Of a stretch of 64,000 nt of DNA, positions 23,908-36,126 are shown piece after piece. Every line of letters begins with the position of its first letter. Within the stretch, counting starts at the first letter, position 1. The stretch lies in the IMG/VR virus record IMGVR_UViG_2579778842_000003; one strand, 5' to 3'. This DNA is from a virus (taxonomy: Duplodnaviria > Heunggongvirae > Uroviricota > Caudoviricetes). Under the pieces are notes generated by a model. It was not told where the DNA came from. It ran no database searches and was given only the letters and a program-made list of their open reading frames with translations. The position numbers and the translations under genes are program-made.

Positions 23908-24769
23908 TCTATACAGGCATGTATAACAACAACGAGCCTATTAGCTGTCAACAACATTATTTTCTCAAATAAGAAAAAGCAGAAAACAAATTGTTTAAGA
24001 TCACAAATTGTGGCCTTGATGGAGGAGGGAGGCTTATTGGCTATGGCTAAAAATCAAATTAGACACTTCATGTTGCTGTAGCTCATCAAGATCCGAGGCC
24101 ACAAAACCTTTTCCGAAAAACTTCACAAGTAACTCACTAGCTGCATCATTGTCACCTATTACACGAAAGTCATACGGCAACGTCGCAAGTTGACGATGTA
24201 ATCCTGCTGAGAAAGTCGAATCTAACAGCGCCCAGAATTCCCACCGCAGGATAATACTCGCCTCTTAATACTGTATATATGTTGTTACGATATGTTTTTC
24301 TGTCTCTAAAAAAAGATGTTAATAGAATGCTAACCATTGAAGGGGATAAAAATATACAATTCCAACAAACGTTATTTTTAACAATTTTTTTCTTTGCGTT
24401 GACTTTCCCTGACACCTTGTCTGACCGAAGGTGCGCGAAAGCCACTTTTTCCTTCCTGAGTTATCCACAAAGTTATGCACTTGCAAGAGGGCCATTTTCT
24501 ACATATTGTGGTGGCTAACAGATGAAATGAATGTAGATTAATTGAAGATAAGGAGAAAATTTGAGATGCAATCATGACGTTAATAGATAGGGTCTGCATT
24601 ACAGACCCCACCCGCATCAAGGAATTAGCCGTTCCCTGATGTTTTTCCGAAAACATGTGCCGTAAGCTCACGTTAACGACTTTCATTCACCGAATCCAAC
24701 TATATAGGGGTTGGGTTTCTACGTCAACGTGAGCAAGTGCACCTTTACATTTGACAAGGAACCACCTGA

Positions 24770-24907
24770 ATGAACGCTTTTTTTCAGTTCCTGAGTGCAT
24801 TTTTAGATGCGCCTGTTATTAGCCAGATTCTGGCTATTATCCTCATCATCGTTTTGATTTTGCTTTTAAGGTCAGTAAAAAATGGAATTATGCACTGGCT
24901 TACTTAA
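24770..24907 (+). CDS. small hydrophobic peptide ORF (45 aa) in the AT-rich island; possible small membrane toxin-like peptide
   Basis: ATG at 24770 preceded by AAGGA; MNAFFQFLSAFLDAPVISQILAIILIIVLILLLRSVKNGIMHWLT; not in the ORF track because under 60 aa. Confidence 0.3.
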   Translation: MNAFFQFLSAFLDAPVISQILAIILIIVLILLLRSVKNGIMHWLT

Positions 24908-24982
24908 TGTTTCAGTGAAACATTAAAATATCCTTGATGAGGAAACAATCATTTTCTGTATGTGCTGGTGGGCACCTGTAGT

Positions 24983-25345
24983 TCAGCTTTCGTTGGCATT
25001 TAACTTCGTCTTTGCTTTCTCCACCAGCAACTTCCAGATGCCTATTTCATTAGCAGCCGCCTTGATGGCGGCATAAAAAGCATCTTGCTGATCGTAACGC
25101 TGGATCTGTTTTTTCAGTTTTGCCTCCACCAATTTAATTTCATTACGTGCTTTCTGAATCCGCATCACCGCCCGGTTACGTCTGTTCTTGTATAGCGTGT
25201 TAATCTCTGACAATTGCTTTAATTTACCAGCCTGACTGCGGATTATCGCCTCCCTGGCTTCTGCCGTGCGTCTCATCTGATCTCTTAAGAGTTCACCGTT
25301 TTCGATAATTCTTTCAAGGTGTTTGATGTGATCTGCAACTCTCAT
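24983..25345 (-). CDS. hypothetical coiled-coil protein
   Basis: 120-aa ORF; start of a run of tightly packed, often overlapping - strand ORFs. Confidence 0.5.
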   Translation of the reverse strand: MRVADHIKHLERIIENGELLRDQMRRTAEAREAIIRSQAGKLKQLSEINTLYKNRRNRAVMRIQKARNEIKLVEAKLKKQIQRYDQQDAFYAAIKAAANEIGIWKLLVEKAKTKLNANES

Positions 25346-26016
25346 ACTTCACCCTCGCTTGTATCACCAGCGTCCACCAACGACAATAAAGCCCTGGCCA
25401 TCTTATGAACCAACAGTGCATCAATAATGCCAAGCGTATGCCCCGGCTTAATGTTTAATGCTGCCTCAAGATGACACCTTTCCAGACCGCTTTTCTCGGC
25501 TTGTTTATGATGATATGGCGTAATAACGTCGCCCAAAACACGGCTAATTCTTTCTCGTAATTGCTGGGTGCCAGCACACTTGATCGCTGTATCGTGGAGA
25601 CGGTTAACCAGTTCGCGATAAACATGCGGTTTAATGCGGATACGTTCACCGGTGACGCCCTTTCCTGGCCCTGGCACCGAACTATCCGGAATATCCGGAT
25701 AGTTGCCAGCCTCGTAAGCTACCCGCAGCCAGTGCATGAATGTTTCAGTAGACACACAACCACAGTCCACATCGATTTTTCCGCGTTGCTGTTCCAGCCA
25801 CTGCTCAAAATTCAATCTACACGTATTACTTTCATGTTGCTCTTTTTGTCTTAAGGCCAGCACCTGTTGGGCCAGTTCCAGAACGATACCGGGTGACGCT
25901 AACCTCTCAAATTCCAATAAATAGTTTGCGTCAGGATGACAAGTAGCCTCGCCTGCAAAAAATACCAATTGCTGTAAGTATGCTGTCGTTAGAGTAGTCA
26001 TTTCTTTTTGCGCCAT
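25342..26016 (-). CDS. hypothetical protein
   Basis: 224-aa ORF overlapping the downstream start by 4 nt (coupled). Confidence 0.5.
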   Translation of the reverse strand: MAQKEMTTLTTAYLQQLVFFAGEATCHPDANYLLEFERLASPGIVLELAQQVLALRQKEQHESNTCRLNFEQWLEQQRGKIDVDCGCVSTETFMHWLRVAYEAGNYPDIPDSSVPGPGKGVTGERIRIKPHVYRELVNRLHDTAIKCAGTQQLRERISRVLGDVITPYHHKQAEKSGLERCHLEAALNIKPGHTLGIIDALLVHKMARALLSLVDAGDTSEGEV

Positions 26017-26372
26017 TTCTTTTCACATTCCTTAGTCCATTTTTCAATGTTCATTTTGGCAATATCAGTCATTCCATCACCTAAGAAATACTTTTTCCGG
26101 TACGTCTTGCACTTAAACCACACTACAACAGCCACCAGCCAGAAAATAAAAGGCCATACAGCAATACCAACGACAGCCGCGATAAAGCCCAATAGCCATA
26201 AATGAAGCTCTCCAACTTCTGTTTCCGGCAATATTCTTAAAGAATTAAACAGCAGGCTGAACGAATGGTCGTATGCATTGGCAGTATAAGACATGCAATC
26301 CATATAATTAAAGTCATAGCCTGCGGCTGCCGCCCATAATGGGCGGTCAAGAAAATGTTTTAGTGTCATCAT
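25998..26372 (-). CDS. predicted membrane protein
   Basis: 124-aa ORF with a long hydrophobic segment (LWLLGFIAAVVGIAVWPFIFWLVAVVVWF) and a basic C-terminus. Confidence 0.45.
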   Translation of the reverse strand: MMTLKHFLDRPLWAAAAGYDFNYMDCMSYTANAYDHSFSLLFNSLRILPETEVGELHLWLLGFIAAVVGIAVWPFIFWLVAVVVWFKCKTYRKKYFLGDGMTDIAKMNIEKWTKECEKKWRKKK

Positions 26373-26378
26373 ATAAAT

Positions 26379-26768
26379 TTAAGGTTCAGACCAGTTATCT
26401 TCAATAGCAATGCTTAATCTTTGTAGCCATTCTGCTAATTTCAGCATTGCTTCTCTTTCGCTTAAACCACGAGGAAAATCATCAAGCGAAATTGTTGGCT
26501 TGAATCCCCCGCAATTATCCATTTCAACTGTCAGATTTTGTTCCAGCACGGTATTTCTTACGCGGCTATTGTGCCGGAGCAAATATACTGAGCATGATTT
26601 ATTGGTTTTGTGGTCTAGCTTATATTCGGTAAGTATCATCTGGCTTTTGCCATGATTATTACCTCTCCACATACTTACCTCACTTAATAAAACAACTCCA
26701 TGCGTAGTTGATGATTTTTTCCCACGTAATATAAATCTGCACTCCGGCAGTAAAACCAAAGCCAACAA
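26379..26768 (-). CDS. hypothetical protein
   Basis: 129-aa ORF; start uncertain. Confidence 0.4.
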   Translation of the reverse strand: MLALVLLPECRFILRGKKSSTTHGVVLLSEVSMWRGNNHGKSQMILTEYKLDHKTNKSCSVYLLRHNSRVRNTVLEQNLTVEMDNCGGFKPTISLDDFPRGLSEREAMLKLAEWLQRLSIAIEDNWSEP

Positions 26769-26850
26769 TTGCTGAAAAAATCAAAACATTTACTTTTGAC
26801 ATTATAAACTTTCTCTCGGTGTCGTAGGTGATAGCACCATAATTGATAAT

Positions 26851-27084
26851 TTAGTGAGTTAGCAGTTCCATTTTTTTGATGATTTCCGCATGAGCATCAT
26901 CGTTATCAACACTTAGCTCGTTTAATGCTTCTCGCACTACATCAACTTCTTCAGGCTGAAAGAAGTCGTCGCGGTAATCACCAAATAGAACCGAAACCAG
27001 CCTGCTACCAGCAACATCAAGATTGGCGCTAACAGGTGGCTCTTTGCCATCCTCAAATTCGACTACAAAAGTTAATTTTCCCAT
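26851..27084 (-). CDS. small acidic hypothetical protein
   Basis: 77-aa ORF. Confidence 0.45.
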   Translation of the reverse strand: MGKLTFVVEFEDGKEPPVSANLDVAGSRLVSVLFGDYRDDFFQPEEVDVVREALNELSVDNDDAHAEIIKKMELLTH

Positions 27085-27160
27085 CGTTACCCCCAGAAGA
27101 TAAAAATAGCGGCAATCGCCATAGCTACGCCTACAATCGCAAATGCTTCAGGCCAGCTTA

Positions 27161-27421
27161 TTACCTCACCTCCAGTCTCCATACCGCCTGACCAATCCGG
27201 CTGGCATGGGTATCTTTGGATACTGTTCCATCTTTAGCCAGCTCCATAAGAATTTTGCGCAAATCTGCCGAACGCCATTCTTCATCAGGAAATTCCTTCT
27301 CCATTGCCAACCGCAGATTCCAGGTTGCTATCGTGAATGGATATTCCCCGCCGAGAGCTTTCTCTTGCAGGGCAGCACGGGAACGTATCACCTGCAAAAC
27401 CTTCTCTTTTACATCCATCAT
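27161..27421 (-). CDS. hypothetical protein
   Basis: ORF 27161..27493 trimmed to Met-25 (MMDVKEKV), which abuts the upstream stop. Confidence 0.45.
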   Translation of the reverse strand: MMDVKEKVLQVIRSRAALQEKALGGEYPFTIATWNLRLAMEKEFPDEEWRSADLRKILMELAKDGTVSKDTHASRIGQAVWRLEVR

Positions 27422-28605
27422 TTTGCCTCCTGCGGCGGTTCTGGTAGCGGCATCCAGTGTGATGGTATCCACGACGCACCAGGTATTACCCACCCATCAT
27501 TAGCGTCAGGATGCCCCGGGATGTAAGTCGCCCATTTCATTCGCCAGTCACCTTTCCTGTCAAACTCCCTGGCAACAAGAACGGCTGTTTTGGTATCCGG
27601 CATTCGCTCACTACAGCTTATCCAACTATCCGGAATTACCGGAAAGTTGCGCATTGCGACCTTTAATGCCTCATAGAAGCACTCTTTCAAATTGTTGAAC
27701 TGACACCCATTTAGAGGACCGTGTTCAGTCAGCATGTTGTGTAATTTCCATGCCGCGTCGTTTACTGCGTTGGATGACATGGGAGGCAACTTGTAAGCCT
27801 GGCTTACAGGCTCGGAACCATGAAGAATGGCGGCGCGGCAGGCATCCTCTACGCCCTTAACTGCATCTGCGCAGTAGTTATAGCGATTGCATTCCACTAA
27901 CTTCTGCTTGAGATTTTCAATTGCTTGTGCGACATCAGCCTGTATTGGTGGAACGGCTGTCTGCTGCTCTCGAACGTCATTAGTCGCTATCGGTTCTGCT
28001 GCCAACTGACTGGCATATTTGTTAATGGTAACGATAAGCTCTTGCTCAGCCTCATCCAGACAATCACCGATACCTCGTCTGTCGCCGTCAAAATCATCGA
28101 AATCAGCACGAACTCTGGCAAACTTCAGGATTGCGGACAACACCTCACCAGGAATTACCGGAGAGTTGGTTGACGTTTCCGCAATTTCCCGAAAATTATT
28201 GGTTGACGCATTCGCGTTTTTCCGAAAGTTTCCGGCATGAAGCATAGCCGCGCGGCAGGCGTTCCAGCCTCTCACCTCTGCAATAGCGGCAACAGCATCG
28301 ACCGCGTACATGCTAAGAGGGTTAGGCATTGGTTTTTCTTCCGGTACTACTGGCGCTGGAGGGGCAGTGTAAAGCTGGTGCGTTCCATCAGGTAGCGAGT
28401 GACCCACATACTCACCGACCCCGTCAATACACATGCCCCCATCTTCAACAATGCATTCCGCTACAGGCTCTGCTTCCAGTGATGCCAGCGCAATCCGTGC
28501 CAGCTCTTCCGCTTCTTCTGCTGGCAGTACAACGTTGCTACCAGGTCCGTATGTTTCGCGCCACTCCTTGATTGTCAGCAGTCGCTCTTTGGTAATAGTG
28601 ATCAT
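27418..28605 (-). CDS. hypothetical protein with DUF551-like Trp-rich C-terminal domain
   Basis: 395 aa; C-terminus WISCSERMPDTKTAVLV...HWMPLPEPP resembles the DUF551 family as recalled. Confidence 0.5.
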   Translation of the reverse strand: MITITKERLLTIKEWRETYGPGSNVVLPAEEAEELARIALASLEAEPVAECIVEDGGMCIDGVGEYVGHSLPDGTHQLYTAPPAPVVPEEKPMPNPLSMYAVDAVAAIAEVRGWNACRAAMLHAGNFRKNANASTNNFREIAETSTNSPVIPGEVLSAILKFARVRADFDDFDGDRRGIGDCLDEAEQELIVTINKYASQLAAEPIATNDVREQQTAVPPIQADVAQAIENLKQKLVECNRYNYCADAVKGVEDACRAAILHGSEPVSQAYKLPPMSSNAVNDAAWKLHNMLTEHGPLNGCQFNNLKECFYEALKVAMRNFPVIPDSWISCSERMPDTKTAVLVAREFDRKGDWRMKWATYIPGHPDANDGWVIPGASWIPSHWMPLPEPPQEAK

Positions 28606-29117
28606 GCCGCGTTTCCTTCTTTCTTATTAACAATTACACCGTCATATATTTCATTAAGGTGCCCTCTCAACTCCATGCGCCTTAATGCAGATAACATGTA
28701 ATCGCATTCAACCTGCTTATTCCCAATAAAAGGTTTATCTTCAGGGTTACCCCAACAGCAATTCCCCTTGGGCCATCCATGTACTTTCCGTACTCTTCCG
28801 TTAACAACGTGAAGTAATCCCCAGCCAGGAGGTAAATCCTCAATTGAAATAATTCCCGGCTCACTAATAAAGAATCGCCAGTCGCCCATGCCAAGTGAGG
28901 GATTTTTACGGAAACGCTTTTTTCTATCTGCCAACAAATCAGCACGAGAACACTTCGCCTCTATCAGGCATGATGCTGAATTTCTGAATCCCATAGCATC
29001 TGGCTGTTCTCCGGTACTGGTTACAGCTATAAAGCGGTCATGAAAACAAACCTTGAACCCGTTGCGCTTAAGGAACTTGTACGCAATCTGACAGAGTTCG
29101 CGGTGTGTTAACGCCAT
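28602..29117 (-). CDS. putative PD-(D/E)xK-type nuclease
   Basis: Start at MALTHREL; TGEQPDAMGF ... CLIEAKCS gives a D/E ... PD ... E-x-K pattern. Confidence 0.45.
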   Translation of the reverse strand: MALTHRELCQIAYKFLKRNGFKVCFHDRFIAVTSTGEQPDAMGFRNSASCLIEAKCSRADLLADRKKRFRKNPSLGMGDWRFFISEPGIISIEDLPPGWGLLHVVNGRVRKVHGWPKGNCCWGNPEDKPFIGNKQVECDYMLSALRRMELRGHLNEIYDGVIVNKKEGNAA

Positions 29118-29118
29118 A

Positions 29119-29787
29119 TCACTCTCCTTTGATGCGAATGCCAGCGGCGCGTGGCACATTAACTTCCACGATGCGCACAGTTGGTTTGTACATCTCAATC
29201 GCAGTCAGCCAGTCAGCGCCAGTCATGCGCTTTTCTGCATCGCCATTAGTCCACTTAACCGGTACACCAATAGCCTTCATCGCGATTTCTATTTCCCCGG
29301 CAATGGCGCTTTTTCCGCAACCAGTAAAACCAGATACAACGACCAGAACTTCACCTTTGGCTGGTTTTATTTCCCGCGCTTCCAGTTCTGCTATGCGCTT
29401 ACTTCCATCCGAGATAACACCTTCGTAATACTCACGCTGCTCGTTGAGTTTTGATTTTGCTTCCTCAAGCTCAACTCTCAGCTTCCCTACCGTTAGCGCA
29501 ATATCCTCGTTCTCCTGGTCACGGCGTTTGATGTATTGCTGGTTTCTTTCCCGTTCATCCAGTAGTGCCAGCACGGTTTCTGGTCCGGCCAGAAATTTGA
29601 AGGCGTTGAGCGCATCAATATCCACACCGTAATCTTTAAGTTCCTGTTCACTTAACAAATCATCATCAGCTGGCAACATTAACAGGCGTTCCATTGCTGG
29701 AATTGCACGTTCCGCCGCCTCACGCAGTGCCTGATAGTCAATCTTGCTCACTGGTTGCCTCCTTGGCGGAGTTGCGCTGCGATGCAT
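29119..29787 (-). CDS. coiled-coil protein with C-terminal P-loop (Walker A GFTGCGKS)
   Basis: 222-aa ORF; Walker A motif in the C-terminal third. Confidence 0.5.
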   Translation of the reverse strand: MHRSATPPRRQPVSKIDYQALREAAERAIPAMERLLMLPADDDLLSEQELKDYGVDIDALNAFKFLAGPETVLALLDERERNQQYIKRRDQENEDIALTVGKLRVELEEAKSKLNEQREYYEGVISDGSKRIAELEAREIKPAKGEVLVVVSGFTGCGKSAIAGEIEIAMKAIGVPVKWTNGDAEKRMTGADWLTAIEMYKPTVRIVEVNVPRAAGIRIKGE

Positions 29788-29987
29788 GAAAAAAAAGACT
29801 CCCGAGTGTGACAGTTAAGAGCTGGTGCGAACGCCGCGTTAAGAACGGCGGCATCACAGCCGTCATCAATATAGAGCGCAATTTTTTTCTCCAGGCGCGC
29901 TTTGGCTTCCTGCAACTGCATACCCCGGCACGCACGCGGGATATAATCAGCAATTTGAGCGATAGCTTTTTCGTTCTGTTTAAACAT
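29748..29987 (-). CDS. hypothetical small protein
   Basis: 79-aa ORF overlapping neighbours; weak. Confidence 0.3.
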   Translation of the reverse strand: MFKQNEKAIAQIADYIPRACRGMQLQEAKARLEKKIALYIDDGCDAAVLNAAFAPALNCHTRESFFSCIAAQLRQGGNQ

Positions 29988-30183
29988 GCTTCACCTCGAT
30001 AGGCTTGATGGTGTCTAACAGCAGTCGGCGGCGCGTATTTTCTGCAAAATGGCGGCGCCCAGTTTCTTTGTGGTAAAACTCGTTTTTGCCGACGACCCAC
30101 ATCCGCTCTGTTTGGTGCAGTTTTTTTACCTTCGGGCCATCTTTGGTGATCACGGTACCGGTATGGGTTTTTACGATTGTCAT
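29980..30183 (-). CDS. hypothetical small basic protein
   Basis: 67-aa ORF coupled to the upstream PAPS-reductase-like gene (stop/start overlap). Confidence 0.4.
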   Translation of the reverse strand: MTIVKTHTGTVITKDGPKVKKLHQTERMWVVGKNEFYHKETGRRHFAENTRRRLLLDTIKPIEVKHV

Positions 30184-31058
30184 TCCACTACCTCTTCGAA
30201 TTTCAACTCCAATTGGTCACCCCAGATTTCACATGATTCGGAACACGAACCAGTATCAAACCGCTTGGCCAGCACCATCGCCTGATACAAATTTCTGTAG
30301 TCACTGTCGGCATACATTCTGGCAATCCCGTCAAGCGTCAGGTGGCCACGGTACATAACGTCTTTACCTGTTCTGCGCTGACCATCCCTGACGTGTTTGC
30401 CTGTAACCAGTTCATTAAAAACCCGCATCAGACCTGGTTCGTCTTTACATGCAAGCCCCAGCTTTTGCGTTGACTTTTTGATGCAAAAAACACAGTTCCC
30501 GAGGTGCTCCGGGATTTGCAAATCAAAAGGTTGTTTTCGCCACCACCGGATAACATCCGACTTATCAAAATCTGACAGTTCGGCAAGATACCGGACGCCC
30601 GGTTTCGGTTTCAGCCTACGGGGTTCGTCCGCACGAATACCGAGCCATGTGATGTAATTCCCTCGCCCAAAATGATCATCGCAATATTTCGTGAAAGGGG
30701 TGAGTTTTAGCCTGTCGGTACAGAACGCGCCGCCGATGTATGGCGTACCGTACTTTTTAACCATGTCCATAAACGGTTTAAGCACCGGCATTCGCGTCTG
30801 AATATCCTTTGGTTCCCATTCCGTATAACCATTTGGCTGCCCAAGTTCTGGATTTATATCGACCTGCAACACCGTTAGCGGTACGTTCCAGAACTTCACA
30901 ACCTCACGAATAAAGCGATACGTCAGAGGATGTTCACAGCCGGTATCCATAAAAATGAAATGGACGCTAGCGCCAGCTTTTCGCTGTGCTTCCATCAGAT
31001 GAACGAGATAAGCCGATGTTCGTCCACCTGAAAAGCTGACAACTTGATGCATACTCAC
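30180..31058 (-). CDS. PAPS reductase-like / PP-loop ATP pyrophosphatase family protein
   Basis: 292 aa; N-terminal SFSGGRTSAYL (SGGxDS-type PP-loop). Confidence 0.7.
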   Translation of the reverse strand: MSMHQVVSFSGGRTSAYLVHLMEAQRKAGASVHFIFMDTGCEHPLTYRFIREVVKFWNVPLTVLQVDINPELGQPNGYTEWEPKDIQTRMPVLKPFMDMVKKYGTPYIGGAFCTDRLKLTPFTKYCDDHFGRGNYITWLGIRADEPRRLKPKPGVRYLAELSDFDKSDVIRWWRKQPFDLQIPEHLGNCVFCIKKSTQKLGLACKDEPGLMRVFNELVTGKHVRDGQRRTGKDVMYRGHLTLDGIARMYADSDYRNLYQAMVLAKRFDTGSCSESCEIWGDQLELKFEEVVE

Positions 31059-31061
31059 GGT

Positions 31062-31790
31062 TTATTCCTGAATGCGCTTAAACTCGATTACCCACACCCA
31101 GGGATTAGCGTTCCAGCTTTCTTCACCATAGATGGATTCCCACAGGCGCTGGAACGCAACCTTGGCCATTGCGAAATCCCCCTTGGGAGTAAGGAATGTT
31201 CCCGGGTGATCAGGAAGCAAACTTCCAGCAGGCGGAACGCCCTCATCCCTTGCATCGCATTCGCTGATATCGTTCAACCGCTCAACGCGCACGTTGGTAA
31301 TTTCCAACAGGATGCGTGATGCCCATCGCGGCATGTGAATTGATGGACGCCACCCACCATCAAACTTTTCATTCACTGTGTGAGGTTTCCAGTCGGCATC
31401 ATCTGGTATCGACCATAAACCGTAATCACCAGGCTTTTGCTCACAACTGGCCCGATAAATCCTTGCTGCGTTCTTCTCATCGCCACGACAAAGGTTGTCG
31501 TTCCAGTCCACACTGCAACCATCTTCATTGCCTAATATCGCCCATGTTTCACGAACCCAAATTCGATCGCCGACGATACCAAAGGGGCAATTGAAAACAC
31601 TGCTTACACCATCAGCCCCGTACCACTGAAAACCTGCACCAATTTTTCTAACCATCACTGGTGCTTCTGGACCAACTTCCGCAGGCTGATTTTTCATTAT
31701 CCGCCGCGTCTGCGTTTTCCTTCCTTCGAGGATGGCCCGGACCATCTCATCGTTGAAAATCATGCCGCGCTCTTTCACTTCGCCTTTCAT
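31062..31790 (-). CDS. hypothetical protein, ASCH/PUA-like (tentative)
   Basis: 242 aa; N-terminal MIFNDEMVRAILEGRKTQTRR as in ASCH-like phage proteins as recalled; start may be Met-10. Confidence 0.45.
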   Translation of the reverse strand: MKGEVKERGMIFNDEMVRAILEGRKTQTRRIMKNQPAEVGPEAPVMVRKIGAGFQWYGADGVSSVFNCPFGIVGDRIWVRETWAILGNEDGCSVDWNDNLCRGDEKNAARIYRASCEQKPGDYGLWSIPDDADWKPHTVNEKFDGGWRPSIHMPRWASRILLEITNVRVERLNDISECDARDEGVPPAGSLLPDHPGTFLTPKGDFAMAKVAFQRLWESIYGEESWNANPWVWVIEFKRIQE

Positions 31791-31968
31791 GCATCCCCCT
31801 TACCCATGCGCGACGATGCCGCCAAAAGTGATAGAGAACAGCCAGAAATAGATCGCGGCCATAATGATTTTGAATGCCGTGTTCATATTTTCAGCTCCTG
31901 TGATTGATTGGATACATGCCGCGCCTTGCGGCATGTTTTTATTTTCACTTTCTCTGTTTTAAAAATCA

Positions 31969-31985
31969 AGATTTATTAGAGCAAT
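31969..31985 (-). promoter_or_regulatory. C1 operator upstream of the ASCH-like / PAPS-reductase-like operon
   Basis: - strand reads ATTGCTCTAATAAATCT (15/17 match to consensus). Confidence 0.6.
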
Positions 31986-32491
31986 TATTGTTGATGAAGA
32001 AGCGCATTTTCATACTCCCTGACCATTAACGTAAGCACGCCGTGCCTCCTGAAAACACGCGCCACTTCAATCTTATCTTCCAGCGCGAACGCGATTTTAC
32101 TTAGACCAATTTTCTTAAGGAGATCAATCTTTGCTGGGCCGTCATTTCTGTCATCGGTGGCAGGACGCATAGATAGCAAAGGCTCAGCCCCGTTTGTTAC
32201 GTACTTCCGCAGCCAGGCTCGTGTTTTATCCCTTGCGATCTCACAGCGCCCGGTTACAAACCAGACCGTGTAAACGCTAAATAACTGGCGCACCATATCA
32301 ATAACTGGAGTGATGGGAGTATCGGTGTCACAGGCGAGATTAAACTCGTTCCAGTCCTTTGTTAATGCACCTTTACTTGGTGGCGGAAGCAAATGCAGTC
32401 TGTCTTCAGTTGCCTCTGATATTGTTCCATCAATATCGACTATGACGATATACGGACGTTCCTGGTGTGCATGTTTATTGAAAATACTCAA
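31985..32491 (-). CDS. HAD-superfamily phosphatase-like protein
   Basis: 168 aa; DxDGT motif (IVIVDIDGTI) near the N-terminus. Confidence 0.6.
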   Translation of the reverse strand: MSIFNKHAHQERPYIVIVDIDGTISEATEDRLHLLPPPSKGALTKDWNEFNLACDTDTPITPVIDMVRQLFSVYTVWFVTGRCEIARDKTRAWLRKYVTNGAEPLLSMRPATDDRNDGPAKIDLLKKIGLSKIAFALEDKIEVARVFRRHGVLTLMVREYENALLHQQ

Positions 32492-32563
32492 ATGCCCTCC
32501 TCATTGGATGAAAAAAATGCTGGTGGGCGCACTCCACCAGCATTAAAAGTGACACTGTAACTA

Positions 32564-33826
32564 TCAGCGGACGTAAATAGTGCCGCCGTTCTCTTTTTCC
32601 CATGCATCGCTACGTGCATAGCAAACATCGAGAAGTCTTCTTGCCGCTGTTTCCTCTAAACCCAATTCGACAACCAACTGCTCATGACGGCGGGTAACCA
32701 CATCAAACAGGGTATGCAACCCTTTAGTTGCCAGATCATCAATGAATTCCGGTTCGAACGGCAGCTCTGCATCTGCCAACATAACCTCTTGCGCCCACTC
32801 AACTCGACGGACCAATTCCGGGCGGCGGCTTTCCATCTCTTTACAGATCAATTCATGGAAGAACTCTACCCAACCTTCCGGCTGGAACTCGCGGAAAATT
32901 GCCAACGGCTGGAAGTTTGGCATCAACCATTCGTTGATTCGGATATCAATGGCATAGCCCATGTCGCAGCAGAACTGATAAGCAAAGTCCAGCTTAGAAA
33001 CGATATAAGGACGCTCGTTATTGAACTCTTTAGGCGATGAGATCCCATAAGCCAGGAGGCGCGGGAAGAAGGAGATTTGCCCTAACGTCGGATGAAGTTT
33101 GCTTGCAGGGAAACGGCGCTCAGTAATGCCATACATTTCCTTCTTGAGCGTCGCAAATTTGGCATTCTCATTAACCAGCGCGGTAACCTCTGCTTTTTTA
33201 TTAGCAAATGCCACGCGCGCCTCGCTTGCATCTTTAATAGTTTTTTTGAGCTGTTGGTTAAGGTCGGCGACCTGCTTACGCAGTTCCTGTCGCTCGCTTT
33301 TAGCTTTGTTATAGCGTTTCTCAAGGTTAAAAGGATCAAGTTTCATGATCTCTTTATATTGAGATTTTAGCGTTGAAATCTGTGAGTTCCGCAGTTCAAC
33401 CATCGCGGTCATTTCATTGAGTTTTGTTTCCAGCTCAATGCTTATACGTTCGGCATTATCAGCACGCTGGTTGGCGTCATGCGTCGCATCGTCGATCGCG
33501 TCCTGTTGCTGGCGTTTCAAATGTTCAATTTGCAGCTGAAGCTCTTCAATTTCTTTACCCTTCAGACCGAGATCCAACTGCATATTTTCAGCTGCATCTA
33601 CCAGGGAGTTATGGCTATCAGCTTCTGCGTTATAAACATCAATAAGCTGTGCGTGAAGCATCTCCGCTGACTGAACCGCATTATCAAAAAAACGTGCTGT
33701 GAGGTCATCACAACTAACGCGGCGTTGCGCGGCCCGGATGTTCTGGATAATGGCCGGGATACCGGCATTCAGGACGTCAGGGATAGATACATTTTCGATT
33801 GATTGGTTTTGTGCTGAAGTGCTCAT
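32564..33826 (-). CDS. hypothetical coiled-coil protein
   Basis: 420 aa with a long central coiled-coil-like region. Confidence 0.5.
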   Translation of the reverse strand: MSTSAQNQSIENVSIPDVLNAGIPAIIQNIRAAQRRVSCDDLTARFFDNAVQSAEMLHAQLIDVYNAEADSHNSLVDAAENMQLDLGLKGKEIEELQLQIEHLKRQQQDAIDDATHDANQRADNAERISIELETKLNEMTAMVELRNSQISTLKSQYKEIMKLDPFNLEKRYNKAKSERQELRKQVADLNQQLKKTIKDASEARVAFANKKAEVTALVNENAKFATLKKEMYGITERRFPASKLHPTLGQISFFPRLLAYGISSPKEFNNERPYIVSKLDFAYQFCCDMGYAIDIRINEWLMPNFQPLAIFREFQPEGWVEFFHELICKEMESRRPELVRRVEWAQEVMLADAELPFEPEFIDDLATKGLHTLFDVVTRRHEQLVVELGLEETAARRLLDVCYARSDAWEKENGGTIYVR

Positions 33827-33827
33827 T

Positions 33828-34046
33828 TCAAAGTTCCGTATTAGCTTGTGCTTCGGTCATTTTTCCTAAGTATGAAGGTGGAAGGACTACGCAATTTGTA
33901 TCCAGCCCCTCACCCAGGGCAGCCTGTAAAATTCTGGCTAAGGAGAGTCTCTTGTTGCGATACCGGGTGATGACATGCCTGATATCGCCGGACGGCGTAA
34001 CAAAGGCGATCAGCCAGTAGTGATATTTCCGTCGGAATGGCCACAT
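33828..34046 (-). CDS. hypothetical small protein
   Basis: 72-aa ORF coupled to the upstream gene. Confidence 0.4.
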   Translation of the reverse strand: MWPFRRKYHYWLIAFVTPSGDIRHVITRYRNKRLSLARILQAALGEGLDTNCVVLPPSYLGKMTEAQANTEL

Positions 34047-34060
34047 AGTGCACCTTATGG

Positions 34061-34077
34061 ATTGCTCTAATAAAAAA
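34061..34077 (+). promoter_or_regulatory. C1 operator (one of an inverted pair)
   Basis: ATTGCTCTAATAAAAAA on the + strand. Confidence 0.6.
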
Positions 34078-34109
34078 CGTGATGAGTGTACATCACGTTT
34101 TAAAAATAT

Positions 34110-34126
34110 GGAATTATTAGAGCAAT
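34110..34126 (-). promoter_or_regulatory. C1 operator (second of the inverted pair)
   Basis: - strand reads ATTGCTCTAATAATTCC; the pair lies between two - strand genes. Confidence 0.6.
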
Positions 34127-34127
34127 A

Positions 34128-34829
34128 TTATTCTGATTCTTGCTCAAAAAACGCGCTAATGAGAGGAAGCCAATCCTCTGACACTTCACGCGGTCGCGGT
34201 TTGCCATGGAAGAAGATTATTCGGCAGTCTTTTGGTAATGCCCCATTCCCCCTGGAGTAGCGCGCACTTGCATATTTCGAACCAGGTTCCACAACATCGG
34301 CCTTGTAACTTACAAACCATCCCGGATACAGATCCTGAAATGCTGGTGTATCATCGCCCATAACCTTCCGTAAGAACCCCTGATCACCCCAGCATTCAGT
34401 AGTAACACAATGAGCAATCCAACCTTCCGGATCTTGCCAGAATGCACTCCAGATATGCGCTTTTACACTATTTGGTATCCACAGGGCACCGCTGCCACGA
34501 TATTGTGGATGGTAAAAATCCCTAAGCATGGTGAAGCTGGTTGGTGGATCCTCAAGGATTGGGCGTATATCACCGGCAATAACCGTGTCCAAATCCAGAT
34601 AAAACAGATCATCGGTTATATCCGGTCGGAACAACTCGATTTTCGCCCACCAGCCACGGCACTTTTGCCACTGGTTGATCAATGGGATAACTTTGACGCC
34701 AGGTACATGTAAACGCTTCAGGTCTGTCAGGCAAATAATTTCATAGCCTTTTGGCAGTTGATTAACCAGCCACTGCACATCGGAAGCGTTATAGTCGCCA
34801 CCAGAGCGAAGAACTAAAGCAATCTTCAT
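34128..34829 (-). CDS. hypothetical protein
   Basis: 233-aa ORF coupled to ppp (overlap ATGA). Confidence 0.5.
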
Positions 34830-35518
34830 GCTGCACCATCACCTTTCACTTTCATCAATGTCAGGTTTCCGCAAAATACGGCACCAGTGTCGATATAATG
34901 CTGATTCCAGAATGTCTTCGGGCTTTTCACCGGAGTGTGACCAAAGATAAAACGATCTGCGCCCGAAATTTCGCCACCAATATCATCCATCGAATCACTG
35001 ATACGCTCGCGCGCCCAGACAACGTTGAAAAGCGGCACCTCCTTACCGAATTGATATTCATTATCCGGATAGTCGGCATGGGCTATAACGATAGTTTCTT
35101 GCCCGGTGTTCAACTCAATGATATAGGGCAGTCGTCTTACCAACTCCACCAGCGCCCTGGCTAATATTTCCTGATCAGTGTCCAGCATGAAGAACCATTG
35201 TCCGCCATTCATTAGCCAGTTATTCACGTTGCCATCAGGACTTAACGCATCGAGCATCAACCGCTCATGGTTCCCCATTACTGCCCTGAACCAGGGCATC
35301 TGCAATAGTTCCAGACATTCGACATTTTCAGTACCGCGATCGATAAGGTCGCCGACCGATATCAGTAAATCCTGCGCCGGGTCAAAATCCACACGATGGA
35401 GTTCGGACATCAGTCTGGTGTAGCAACCATGCAGATCACCAACAACCCAGATATTCCTGTATTTGGTACCGTCGATACGGTGATAAATTGTTGGTGCCAT
35501 CATGTATTCTTCAGCCAT
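34826..35518 (-). CDS. ppp: Ser/Thr protein phosphatase, calcineurin-like (P1 Ppp)
   Basis: 230 aa with GDLHG, GDLIDRG and GNHE metallophosphatase motifs. Confidence 0.85.
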
Positions 35519-36126
35519 TCTTTAAGAGTCATCTGCGGAATACCTCCCATTTTCCCGCATGAAACAACGTCAATCTGTTCACGCGCAGACTGGAATAACA
35601 AAGGCAGGTGACTTAGATTTTTTGGCGTGCCGCCGGAGTGAACGCGTGGTTCTTGCGTAGCGTCAACGCCCACCAGGGCGACATGTTTGAATCCGATATG
35701 GAAAGCCAGGTTCAGAGCACCATATGCACTATTGCCGCTGGCAATTTCATTCTCATCTTCACAAAGGCCGAAATGTGCGGACCAGCGCCACGCCCACCAC
35801 TCGGGAGAATTCGTATTTTTTGGCTCCGTGCCGCGTTCAGCCACACGACGGAAGCACAGAACGCCATCTCTGACTTCACGTTCTTTAACATCGGGTAGTG
35901 CCATGCAATAACAAACACCACGGCGACGGCGGCCACGACCAACGCGCCGCATATTGTCTGGCGATGGATCAAGTGTGAAAAAATAAGAAGCGCGGTTAAG
36001 CCAGTCGATGGCCCCATTGACCGCTATAATCGGCACTCCGCGCGGCGCAACAAAGTTTGCGGCGCTTGGGCCACTGCCGACGATAATAACGCGATCACTG
36101 CCTCTAAATTTATTCTTGGGAAACAT
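35500..36126 (-). CDS. hypothetical protein, GSGPS...AVN family (paralogue of next gene)
   Basis: 208 aa; IIVGSGPSA...IIAVNGA and VALVGVD motifs; overlaps the upstream paralogue by about 100 nt. Confidence 0.5.

Follow-up and report, generated by a model that had tools for sequence, protein, structure and literature searches.

Adjacent genes for an Ea22-family protein with a mini P-loop module and an MmcB-like PD-(D/E)xK protein on a P1-like phage-plasmid

In a stretch of 64,000 nucleotides from a virus of the Caudoviricetes (IMG/VR record IMGVR_UViG_2579778842_000003; the whole stretch is called the window hereafter), two short genes on the minus strand, designated gene A and gene B, lie directly next to each other, and their products raise the question of whether an ATPase and a nuclease work here as a pair. 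An earlier note, made from the sequence alone, had described gene A as encoding a 222-amino-acid (aa) coiled-coil protein with the C-terminal Walker A motif GFTGCGKS and gene B as encoding a 171-aa protein with a PD...EAK nuclease-like signature, and had likened the two to the small ATPase-plus-nuclease pairs of DNA-processing modules and of toxin or defence systems. Both descriptions were borne out: the open reading frame (ORF) of gene A is as described, matches the Pfam family PF13935 and carries a Walker A motif that is conserved within its family, while sequence-profile and fold searches, together with invariant catalytic residues, assign the product of gene B to the PD-(D/E)xK fold. The proposed pairing was not, given the separate distribution of the two genes and the lack of matches to defence models. 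We consider it probable that genes A and B are independent lambdoid accessory modules of the exo-xis/ea type, located in a variable operon with a C1 operator at its head on a P1-like phage-plasmid, with the roles proposed below.

Assortment, origin and junction of the two genes

The joint occurrence of the two genes was surveyed in 5,426 complete Escherichia coli genomes with a junction probe of 401 nt, which was counted when at least 80% of it was covered. The P-loop module of gene A was present at 396 places in 365 genomes, gene B at 1,300 in 931 genomes, and the A–B junction was covered in only 79 records (78 genomes). Among phages, gene B was absent from the vicinity of the module in the fetched flanks of phiV10, D6, phiv142-3, PhiR49_2, APC_JM3.2, 689R5, and Tbat1_6, all seven of which carry other small genes directly downstream of the Ea22 gene with the P-loop. 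Phage P7 bears gene B behind an Ea22 gene that has no P-loop module, and the Shiga toxin (Stx) phages matched the DNA query only in part, with the module present in none of them. Metagenomic viral contigs in IMG/VR were examined on both strands through gene-B loci with 3 kb flanks, selected by homologues of 41–75% identity; the mini P-loop was found in none of 80 such loci (positive controls were detected in 17 of 17 cases), and a gene-B homologue was found in none of the 14 loci fetched via the mini P-loop. The neighbours of the distant gene-B loci were highly variable and included no conserved partner; an Ea22-like gene lay directly upstream in only 2 of 79 loci, and 15 of the 79 contained DUF551 at some position. 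Taken together, the 79 records with both genes, set against 396 places for the module and 1,300 for gene B, the two null counts in the reciprocal sets of loci and the seven phages without gene B indicate that the adjacency of A and B is not conserved. Judging by these distributions, the modules are shuffled separately, whether in phages, E. coli genomes or metagenomic viral contigs, and do not constitute a dedicated ATPase–nuclease system. Neither protein gave a PADLOC match (E ≤ 0.01), and the pair bears no defence or toxin signature. The apparent ATPase–nuclease "system" of this P1-like plasmid would thus consist of two separately shuffled lambdoid accessory genes of recognisable families, both common in E. 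coli.

The surroundings of the pair are informative as to its origin. The 12 kb around it (window 24000–36000) matched the 97.7-kb IncY plasmid NZ_CP091040.1 of E. coli W25K with 100% identity, and the phages nearest to the locus were punaviruses (P1-like) such as JL22, P7, and 813R1, with JL22 as the closest single phage. Genes A and B are placed in a variable stretch with pap on one side and pmgV/upfN/humD on the other. At the equivalent position, P1 carries pmgT/U/V, and P7 carries upf88.3 (Ead-like) and upf89.0, the latter corresponding to gene B with 98.8% identity. The DNA of these genes was 94–97% identical in many Stx-converting and other lambdoid phages, and in a lambdoid prophage they follow kil, erf and the anti-RecBCD gene within the early-left operon. 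On the strength of this identity and position, we classify them as lambdoid accessory genes of the exo-xis/ea type that were transplanted onto a P1 backbone. A P1 core function for A and B was considered and ruled out, because P1 has pmgT/U/V at this place and the matches correspond to lambdoid Stx-phage DNA and to upf88.3/upf89.0 of P7; neither protein resolved to a known P1 function in replication or morphogenesis, and the outcome that the earlier note had named as refuting its reading thus did not occur.

The boundary between the two genes reads ...AAA GGA GAG TGA t ATG, with a single base between the stop codon of gene A and the ATG of gene B and with AAGGAG contained in the last three codons of gene A. 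Translational coupling, as previously suggested, is plausible from this arrangement, but it is not a feature of the pair: the successive boundaries across the operon are GTGA, TGAtATG, and ATGA, and, as the neighbouring junctions are equally tight, close coupling is a property of the whole operon and is also seen in other Ea22 genes. The same ~30 nt end the Ea22 genes of JL22, P7, phiv142-3, APC_JM3.2, 689R5, and 813R1, despite different C-terminal domains and downstream genes, and the next start codon in these phages follows 1–2 nt after the Ea22 stop. The block was seen on the minus strand of the window at 29115–29151 and in the fetched loci L001, L002, L004, L012, L014, and L015. Short conserved boundary sequences have been proposed for lambdoid mosaicism. 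Since the block is conserved between unrelated C-terminal domains and unrelated downstream genes, it is likely a joint of mosaic recombination, and its use in homologous recombination for the swapping of cassettes is plausible. Recombination at this conserved 3' junction, which would allow any Ea22 variant to be combined with any downstream cassette, may have brought A next to B. The junction also bears on the C-terminal "+GE" tripeptide shared by Ea22 proteins, which has been called unexplained (PMC7093339). The gene A protein ends in ...IKGE, fitting the (K/R)GE tripeptide of the family, and "+GE" is what results when AAAGGAGAG, which serves the gene downstream as its Shine-Dalgarno sequence, is translated. 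The tripeptide thereby receives a simple reading as the ribosome-binding site of the next gene.

Families and domains of the two proteins

Gene A matched the Pfam family PF13935 (Ead_Ea22) with an E-value of 7e-38 and 130.8 bits against a cut-off of 27, over residues 14–136 and profile positions 1–139, and it is annotated as "Ea22 protein" in JL22 and as "ead/Ea22-like family protein" in RefSeq. Its function had been left unassigned in the earlier note, a statement that needs amending for gene A, which belongs to a studied family (PMC7093339, PMC10834534), and that otherwise still holds. Ea22 proteins begin with a short N-terminal part, continue with a central coiled coil and end in a C-terminal domain that can be exchanged (PMC7093339, PMC10834534, PMC8614690). 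They are tetrameric in lambda and P27 (PMC10834534) and exert a pro-lysogenic effect in lambda and Stx phages, with data available for lambda, Phi24B, 933W, and P27 (PMC7093339, PMC10834534), and the ea22 gene of lambda is non-essential (PMC10695390). Translation of gene A probably begins at the GTG at 29751, which makes the protein 210 aa long, because AAGGAGG lies 6 nt before this codon, the GTG overlaps the stop of the preceding 79-aa ORF (GTGA), homologues begin with MSKIDYQ... or MSEINYQ..., and the annotation of JL22 corresponds to this 633-nt version; the ATG at 29787 has no ribosome-binding site.

The comparison with related proteins shows a mosaic architecture for gene A, in which a conserved N-terminal segment and coiled coil are joined to an exchangeable C-terminal domain. 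Upf88.3 of P7 is identical over residues 61–104 of gene A (210-aa numbering), differs in its C-terminal domain and shares only the last ten residues of the C-terminus (RAAGIRIKGE). Conversely, the last ~87 residues of gene A were at least 89% identical in proteins with unrelated N-terminal parts. The sequence search with the P-loop C-terminus matched no solved PDB structure, from which this domain appears unrelated to the C-terminal domain of lambda Ea22 solved by nuclear magnetic resonance (NMR). In addition to the lambda type, three Stx variants of Ea22 have been described, V1–V3 (PMC7093339, PMC10834534, PMC8614690). Within the phage collection, the P-loop module was present in only 28 records, none of which was an Stx phage, and this argues that the P-loop variant is not V1, V2 or V3 and represents a further C-terminal variant beyond these and the lambda type.

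The Walker A motif of this C-terminus is directly preceded by the hydrophobic strand LVVVS. The pattern [AG]xxxxGK[ST] occurred in 1.4% of 100,000 shuffles of the gene A protein, and in 0.02% when three preceding hydrophobic residues were also required. The first homologue search with the C-terminus gave near-identical sequences only, and distant relatives of the module were reached by tblastn and a second protein search queried with a protein of Burkholderia phage BcepC6B. Alignment A4 comprised 35 sequences with 36–62% identity to the module of the window, and its invariant residues (222-aa numbering) were G156, G158, K159, S160, A161, E185, and E208 within a conserved block of ~65–70 residues. 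One of the two invariant glutamates is part of an EK dipeptide; the other, E208, ends the last predicted hydrophobic strand (VRIVE) and is a candidate for the acidic residue of Walker B type. The relatives of the module included gp37 of BcepC6B (58% identity), proteins of jumbo Ralstonia and Burkholderia phages (35–40%) and ~40 metagenomic proteins, many of which were complete stand-alone proteins of 68–77 aa encoded in the early regions of temperate phages. In gp37 (positions 1917–2516 of locus L008), the module is N-terminal and is followed by a domain of ~110 aa rich in conserved tryptophan and proline, while in ORF127 of Ralstonia phage RSL2 (positions 1494–2636 of locus L009), a jumbo-phage protein of 381 aa, it is central; the partner domains of both proteins gave no Pfam match.

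When the A4 profile was compared with the PDB, 84 chains were matched at E ≤ 10, and nearly all of the 60 listed were P-loop nucleoside triphosphatases (NTPases), with alignments confined to strand 1, Walker A, and helix 1; the de novo designed ATPase PL2x4_2 (9jix) scored best, with an E-value of 0.005. Of the 35 members of A4, 28 gave sub-threshold matches to AAA_16 and AAA_18. Gene A and its C-terminus likewise gave only sub-threshold P-loop matches in the PDB, Pfam and NCBIfam (SRP54, ArsA, FtsY, and adenosine 5'-phosphosulfate (APS) kinase), and the ~65–70 residues of the module neither amount to a full alpha/beta core with five or more strands nor resemble any established NTPase family significantly. 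Based on the residues maintained in A4, the Walker A motif of gene A is genuine and evolutionarily maintained. The mini P-loop family of ~70 residues is in no curated library and is the only, and only mildly, novel element of the locus.

Regarding gene B, the bare PD...EAK pattern (P39-D40...E53-A54-K55, window 28953–29003) is not significant, as it occurred in 5% of shuffles with the proline and in 57% without it, and its reality therefore rests on the evidence from homology and fold. Thirteen residues were invariant across 40 homologues with 35–56% identity (E37, P39, D40, E53, K55, D60, K67, R70, G78, R81, L101, E137, and R146), and D40, E53, and K55, together with E37, were invariant in both alignments A1 and A2. 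The AlphaFold2 (AF2) model was confident, with a predicted local distance difference test score (pLDDT) of 84.9 and a predicted template modelling score (pTM) of 0.81, and contains the core alpha-beta-beta-beta-alpha-beta fold of the PD-(D/E)xK enzymes. In Foldseek searches, 3dnx was the sole significant match in the PDB (E 6.9e-6), the nearest fold neighbours after it were restriction endonucleases and ancillary nucleases of clustered regularly interspaced short palindromic repeats (CRISPR) systems, and the matches among viral models included proteins named "MmcB-like DNA repair protein". The sequence profile of gene B also matched 3dnx (E 1.3e-4) via the motif GE.PD..G...IECKxSRxDFxxDxK, and the extended motif of gene B, IE(A/C)KxSRxD(L/F)xxDxK, aligns with IECKSSRADFQADAK of 3dnx. 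The latter (SPO1766 of Silicibacter pomeroyi) is the structure of DUF1052/PF06319 in a census of PD-(D/E)xK proteins (PMC3424549). MmcB of Caulobacter, a PD-(D/E)xK endonuclease under SOS control, confers protection from mitomycin C and cisplatin and is thought to act with translesion polymerases (PMC9578287).

In the curated libraries, the gene B protein matched no Pfam (E ≤ 0.1), NCBIfam or PADLOC model, and PHROGs assigned it to families without a known function and gave a weak match to a "DNA repair protein". The curated cut-off of PF06319 was not reached, with no match for the window protein and matches for 9 of the 40 family members (best E 0.0029); sub-threshold matches to Hjc (PF01870) were more frequent (16 of 40 members, best E 1.3e-4), and the gene B profile matched Hjc chains with E-values of 0.17–0.4. 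For these two reasons, gene B was filed as what appears to be a phage-borne sister family of the MmcB-like nucleases rather than as a member of PF06319. The family gave 319 matches in a word-indexed search, and an exhaustive search returned 2,616 representatives (50% clustering), of which 1,390 had E ≤ 1e-10. Gene B was present in 643 phage records, which included Stx phages, P1 variants, Vibrio and Klebsiella phages and ~158-kb phages of Salmonella, Klebsiella, and Dickeya; these ~158-kb phages we take to be virulent Ackermannviridae. The 171-aa gene, found in 931 of the 5,426 E. coli genomes, can be relabelled an MmcB-like PD-(D/E)xK nuclease instead of "hypothetical".

The 171-aa ORF of gene B is intact, as shown by a model that is confident over its whole length and by full-length homologues in many genera. 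Existing annotations treat it differently: RefSeq/PGAP calls gene B on the identical plasmid as 110 aa from residue 62 and the neighbouring 395-aa DUF551 gene as 61 aa, and a 100% identical copy on the chromosome NZ_CP019961.1 is labelled a "frameshifted" pseudogene. The loci concerned are L005 (5603–5935 and 4419–4604) and L102 (2838–3016). The gene B domain was also found fused to other domains, namely to the Ea22 N-terminus in the Salmonella proteins P0089, P0090, and P0100, to a dATP/dGTP pyrophosphohydrolase domain or DUF551 in others (including P0315 and P0374), and to a TniB-like AAA ATPase in one case (P0263); all of these may be true fusions or run-throughs of gene calling. They suggest that the nuclease domain is a mobile module, and a fixed ATPase partner is not established by them.

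Operon organization and regulation

The coordinates of the features are collected in Table 1. The operator at 31969–31985 lies directly after pap, in the same place as the annotated Op(hea) of phage P7, and a weak promoter-like site at 32013–31984 overlaps it. With this operator at its head, the operon is probably under C1 repression in the lysogen, with early expression following infection or induction. In the entire window, 12 matches with up to three mismatches to the 17-bp P1 C1 operator consensus were found, compared with a chance expectation of 0.44; these sites map the phage-plasmid's C1 regulon, and only the one at 31969–31985 is related to A and B.

Table 1. Features of the A–B locus and C1 operator-like sites in the 64,000-nt window
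Feature	Position in window	Strand	Remarks
Gene C, 395 aa, C-terminal DUF551 ("EaA")	27418..28605	minus	PF04448, E 8.6e-20, residues 327-392
Gene B, MmcB-like PD-(D/E)xK nuclease-fold	28602..29117	minus	171 aa from ATG; 198 aa from upstream TTG in mechanical ORF list
Catalytic core of gene B, E37, P39-D40 ... E53-A54-K55	28953..29009	minus	Invariant in 30 close and 40 distant homologues
Conserved Ea22 3' junction, cgcgccgctggcattcgcatcAAAGGAGAG-TGA-t-ATG	29115..29151	minus	Encodes RAAGIRIKGE; holds Shine-Dalgarno of next gene
Gene A, Ead/Ea22-family	29119..29787	minus	222 aa from ATG; probable true start GTG 29751, 210 aa
Mini P-loop module, ~65-70 aa	29158..29355	minus	Residues 145-210 (222-aa); predicted strand, Walker A, helix, strand, helix, strand
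Walker A motif GFTGCGKS	29308..29331	minus	Residues 153-160 of 222-aa reading; context LVVVSGFTGCGKSAIAGEIE
Ead_Ea22 region of gene A (N-terminal segment plus the coiled coil in the centre)	29380..29748	minus	PF13935
Upstream 79-aa ORF	29748..29987	minus	Stop overlaps GTG start of gene A (GTGA); "hypothetical protein" in identical plasmid
C1 repressor operator, ATTGCTCTAATAAATCT	31969..31985	minus	1 mismatch to consensus; heads leftward accessory operon
C1 operator-like matches	3578, 15947, 16030, 16494, 20767, 31969, 34061, 34110, 37734, 47959, 47970, 51246		

Downstream, the start of gene C overlaps the stop of gene B (ATGA), and the order of gene B followed by DUF551 was also found in JL22, P7, and Stx phages. 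Upstream, the minus strand encodes a 242-aa protein without a family match (31062–31790), which precedes a gene for a protein of the 3'-phosphoadenosine 5'-phosphosulfate (PAPS) reductase family (30180–31058; Pfam 2.8e-9). The best match of the latter in the defence library was SspD (1.8e-13), with weaker matches to DndC and BrxP, and within this operon the two genes may constitute a cassette that modifies DNA or nucleotides. In JL22, an adenine methyltransferase occupies the equivalent place. A functional link of gene A to APS kinase was considered, given that APS_kinase was the best Pfam match of its C-terminus (E 0.012–0.059) and that the PAPS-reductase-family gene lies two genes upstream. 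This link was rejected: the similarity is confined to the Walker A region, JL22 has the A–B pair without the reductase gene, phiV10, D6, and others have the module without it, and the reductase-like protein matches models of the SspD/DndC type.

Explanations for the locus and comparison with known systems

In the explanation that we favour, with A and B as independent accessory modules, the N-terminal segment and coiled coil of gene A would serve as an oligomerisation scaffold (a tetramer in the studied relatives) that carries one of several swappable C-terminal modules. The mini P-loop would most likely bind a phosphate-bearing ligand, either a nucleotide or a nucleic acid, and could be completed or activated by oligomerisation, whether provided by the Ea22 coiled coil or by self-association. 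The product of gene B would most likely be a stand-alone Mg2+-dependent PD-(D/E)xK DNA endonuclease of an MmcB-like lineage, with damaged or branched DNA in early phage replication, recombination or repair as its most likely substrate. A number of points weigh against this explanation. No P-loop family was matched at the curated thresholds of Pfam and NCBIfam, and the PDB matches were sub-threshold as well; the AF2 model of the P-loop C-terminus reached a pLDDT of only 44.7 on a shallow alignment of 16 sequences that are at least 89% identical, and, compared with any P-loop NTPase domain known so far, the module is only about half as large. No member of the gene-B family has a demonstrated activity, and the evidence on MmcB itself is mainly genetic (PMC9578287). 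Genes A and B also adjoin in ~20% of the E. coli copies of the module, which leaves room for a selective benefit of the combination, and the fusions with Ea22 and with the TniB-like ATPase could reflect functional traffic of the nuclease with Ea22 scaffolds or ATPases.

These last observations, together with the one-base gap and the exact junction in 78 E. coli genomes, are what a dedicated two-component ATPase–nuclease system would have in its favour, a system for defence or exclusion or of a toxin–antitoxin-like kind in which the P-loop protein senses or regulates and the nuclease executes. We judge such a system highly improbable in view of the independent assortment at every evolutionary distance sampled, the lack of PADLOC matches for both proteins, the equally tight coupling at all neighbouring junctions of the operon and the presence of gene B without such a partner in the ~158-kb phages of Salmonella, Klebsiella, Dickeya, and Vibrio, which are apparently virulent. 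As for the nuclease, the sub-threshold matches to Hjc described above and the position of gene B in the early-left operon of lambdoid prophages, where erf and the anti-RecBCD gene lie immediately upstream, would be consistent with an Hjc-like resolvase of Holliday junctions or branched DNA that acts in phage recombination and not in lesion repair of the MmcB type; we regard this as unlikely. An attack on foreign or host DNA, for superinfection exclusion, host takeover or counter-defence, rather than the processing of the phage's own DNA seems distinctly unlikely to us, even though gene B is found among moron-like genes in hypervariable accessory regions of temperate phages and its fold, after that of 3dnx, comes closest to restriction endonucleases and CRISPR ancillary nucleases. 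The lack of a PADLOC match and of a conserved specificity or modification partner and the occurrence of gene B in the ~158-kb phages speak against such an attack, none of them decisively.

The Walker A element of gene A might, alternatively, be a structural relic. Its length of only ~70 residues, the lack of a P-loop family at threshold and the low confidence of the AF2 model fit this explanation, as do the other C-terminal domains of Ea22, which are non-enzymatic as far as known (PMC10834534). We nonetheless find a relic doubtful, because the residues that remain invariant at 36–62% identity are exactly the G, G, K, S, and A of the Walker A motif and two glutamates, the pattern expected of a conserved ligand-binding or catalytic site. 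Only tentatively do we propose that the module represents a natural autonomous mini P-loop family, occurring alone or on oligomerising scaffolds such as Ea22, that must oligomerise to bind, and perhaps to hydrolyse, nucleotides. If so, it would represent in nature what the minimal beta-(P-loop)-alpha prototypes represent in the laboratory, where they serve to model the origin of P-loop NTPases, a functional nucleotide-binding unit of 70 residues would be relevant to the minimal requirements and the origin of P-loop enzymes, and the Ea22 field would gain a C-terminal domain with a testable ligand.

When compared to known systems, gene A resembles the Ea22 proteins of lambda and the Stx phages in ending with the same "+GE" tripeptide and in the place of its family in lambdoid prophages, in the early-left operon after the recombination genes. 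In contrast to these proteins, its C-terminal domain is the mini P-loop module, which has no match to the lambda domain and is none of V1, V2 or V3, and in our phage-plasmid the gene stands under a C1 operator and not under pL. Gene B shares its extended active-site motif with the MmcB-like protein 3dnx, its closest structural relative. It differs from the MmcB family in remaining below the PF06319 threshold, in an additional invariant glutamate (E37), in a conserved C-terminal part comprising W-G-L-L, E137, and R146-R147, and in being borne by phages of Enterobacterales, Vibrio, and others, whereas MmcB is chromosomal and SOS-regulated in alpha-proteobacteria. Archaeal Hjc (PF01870) is likewise a minimal PD-(D/E)xK nuclease of similar size and has the same D-x12-E-x-K spacing as gene B, but the sequence matches between the two are sub-threshold. 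Finally, the designed beta-(P-loop)-alpha prototypes and PL2x4_2 (9jix) are, like the module of gene A, tiny units of strand, Walker A and helix, and they depend on oligomerisation (bioRxiv 10.1101/2020.07.30.228619; PMC10119929). The likeness is one of concept and motif and not a demonstrated homology or activity; the prototypes are laboratory constructs, whereas the module of gene A is natural and carries two more conserved elements, each bearing a glutamate.

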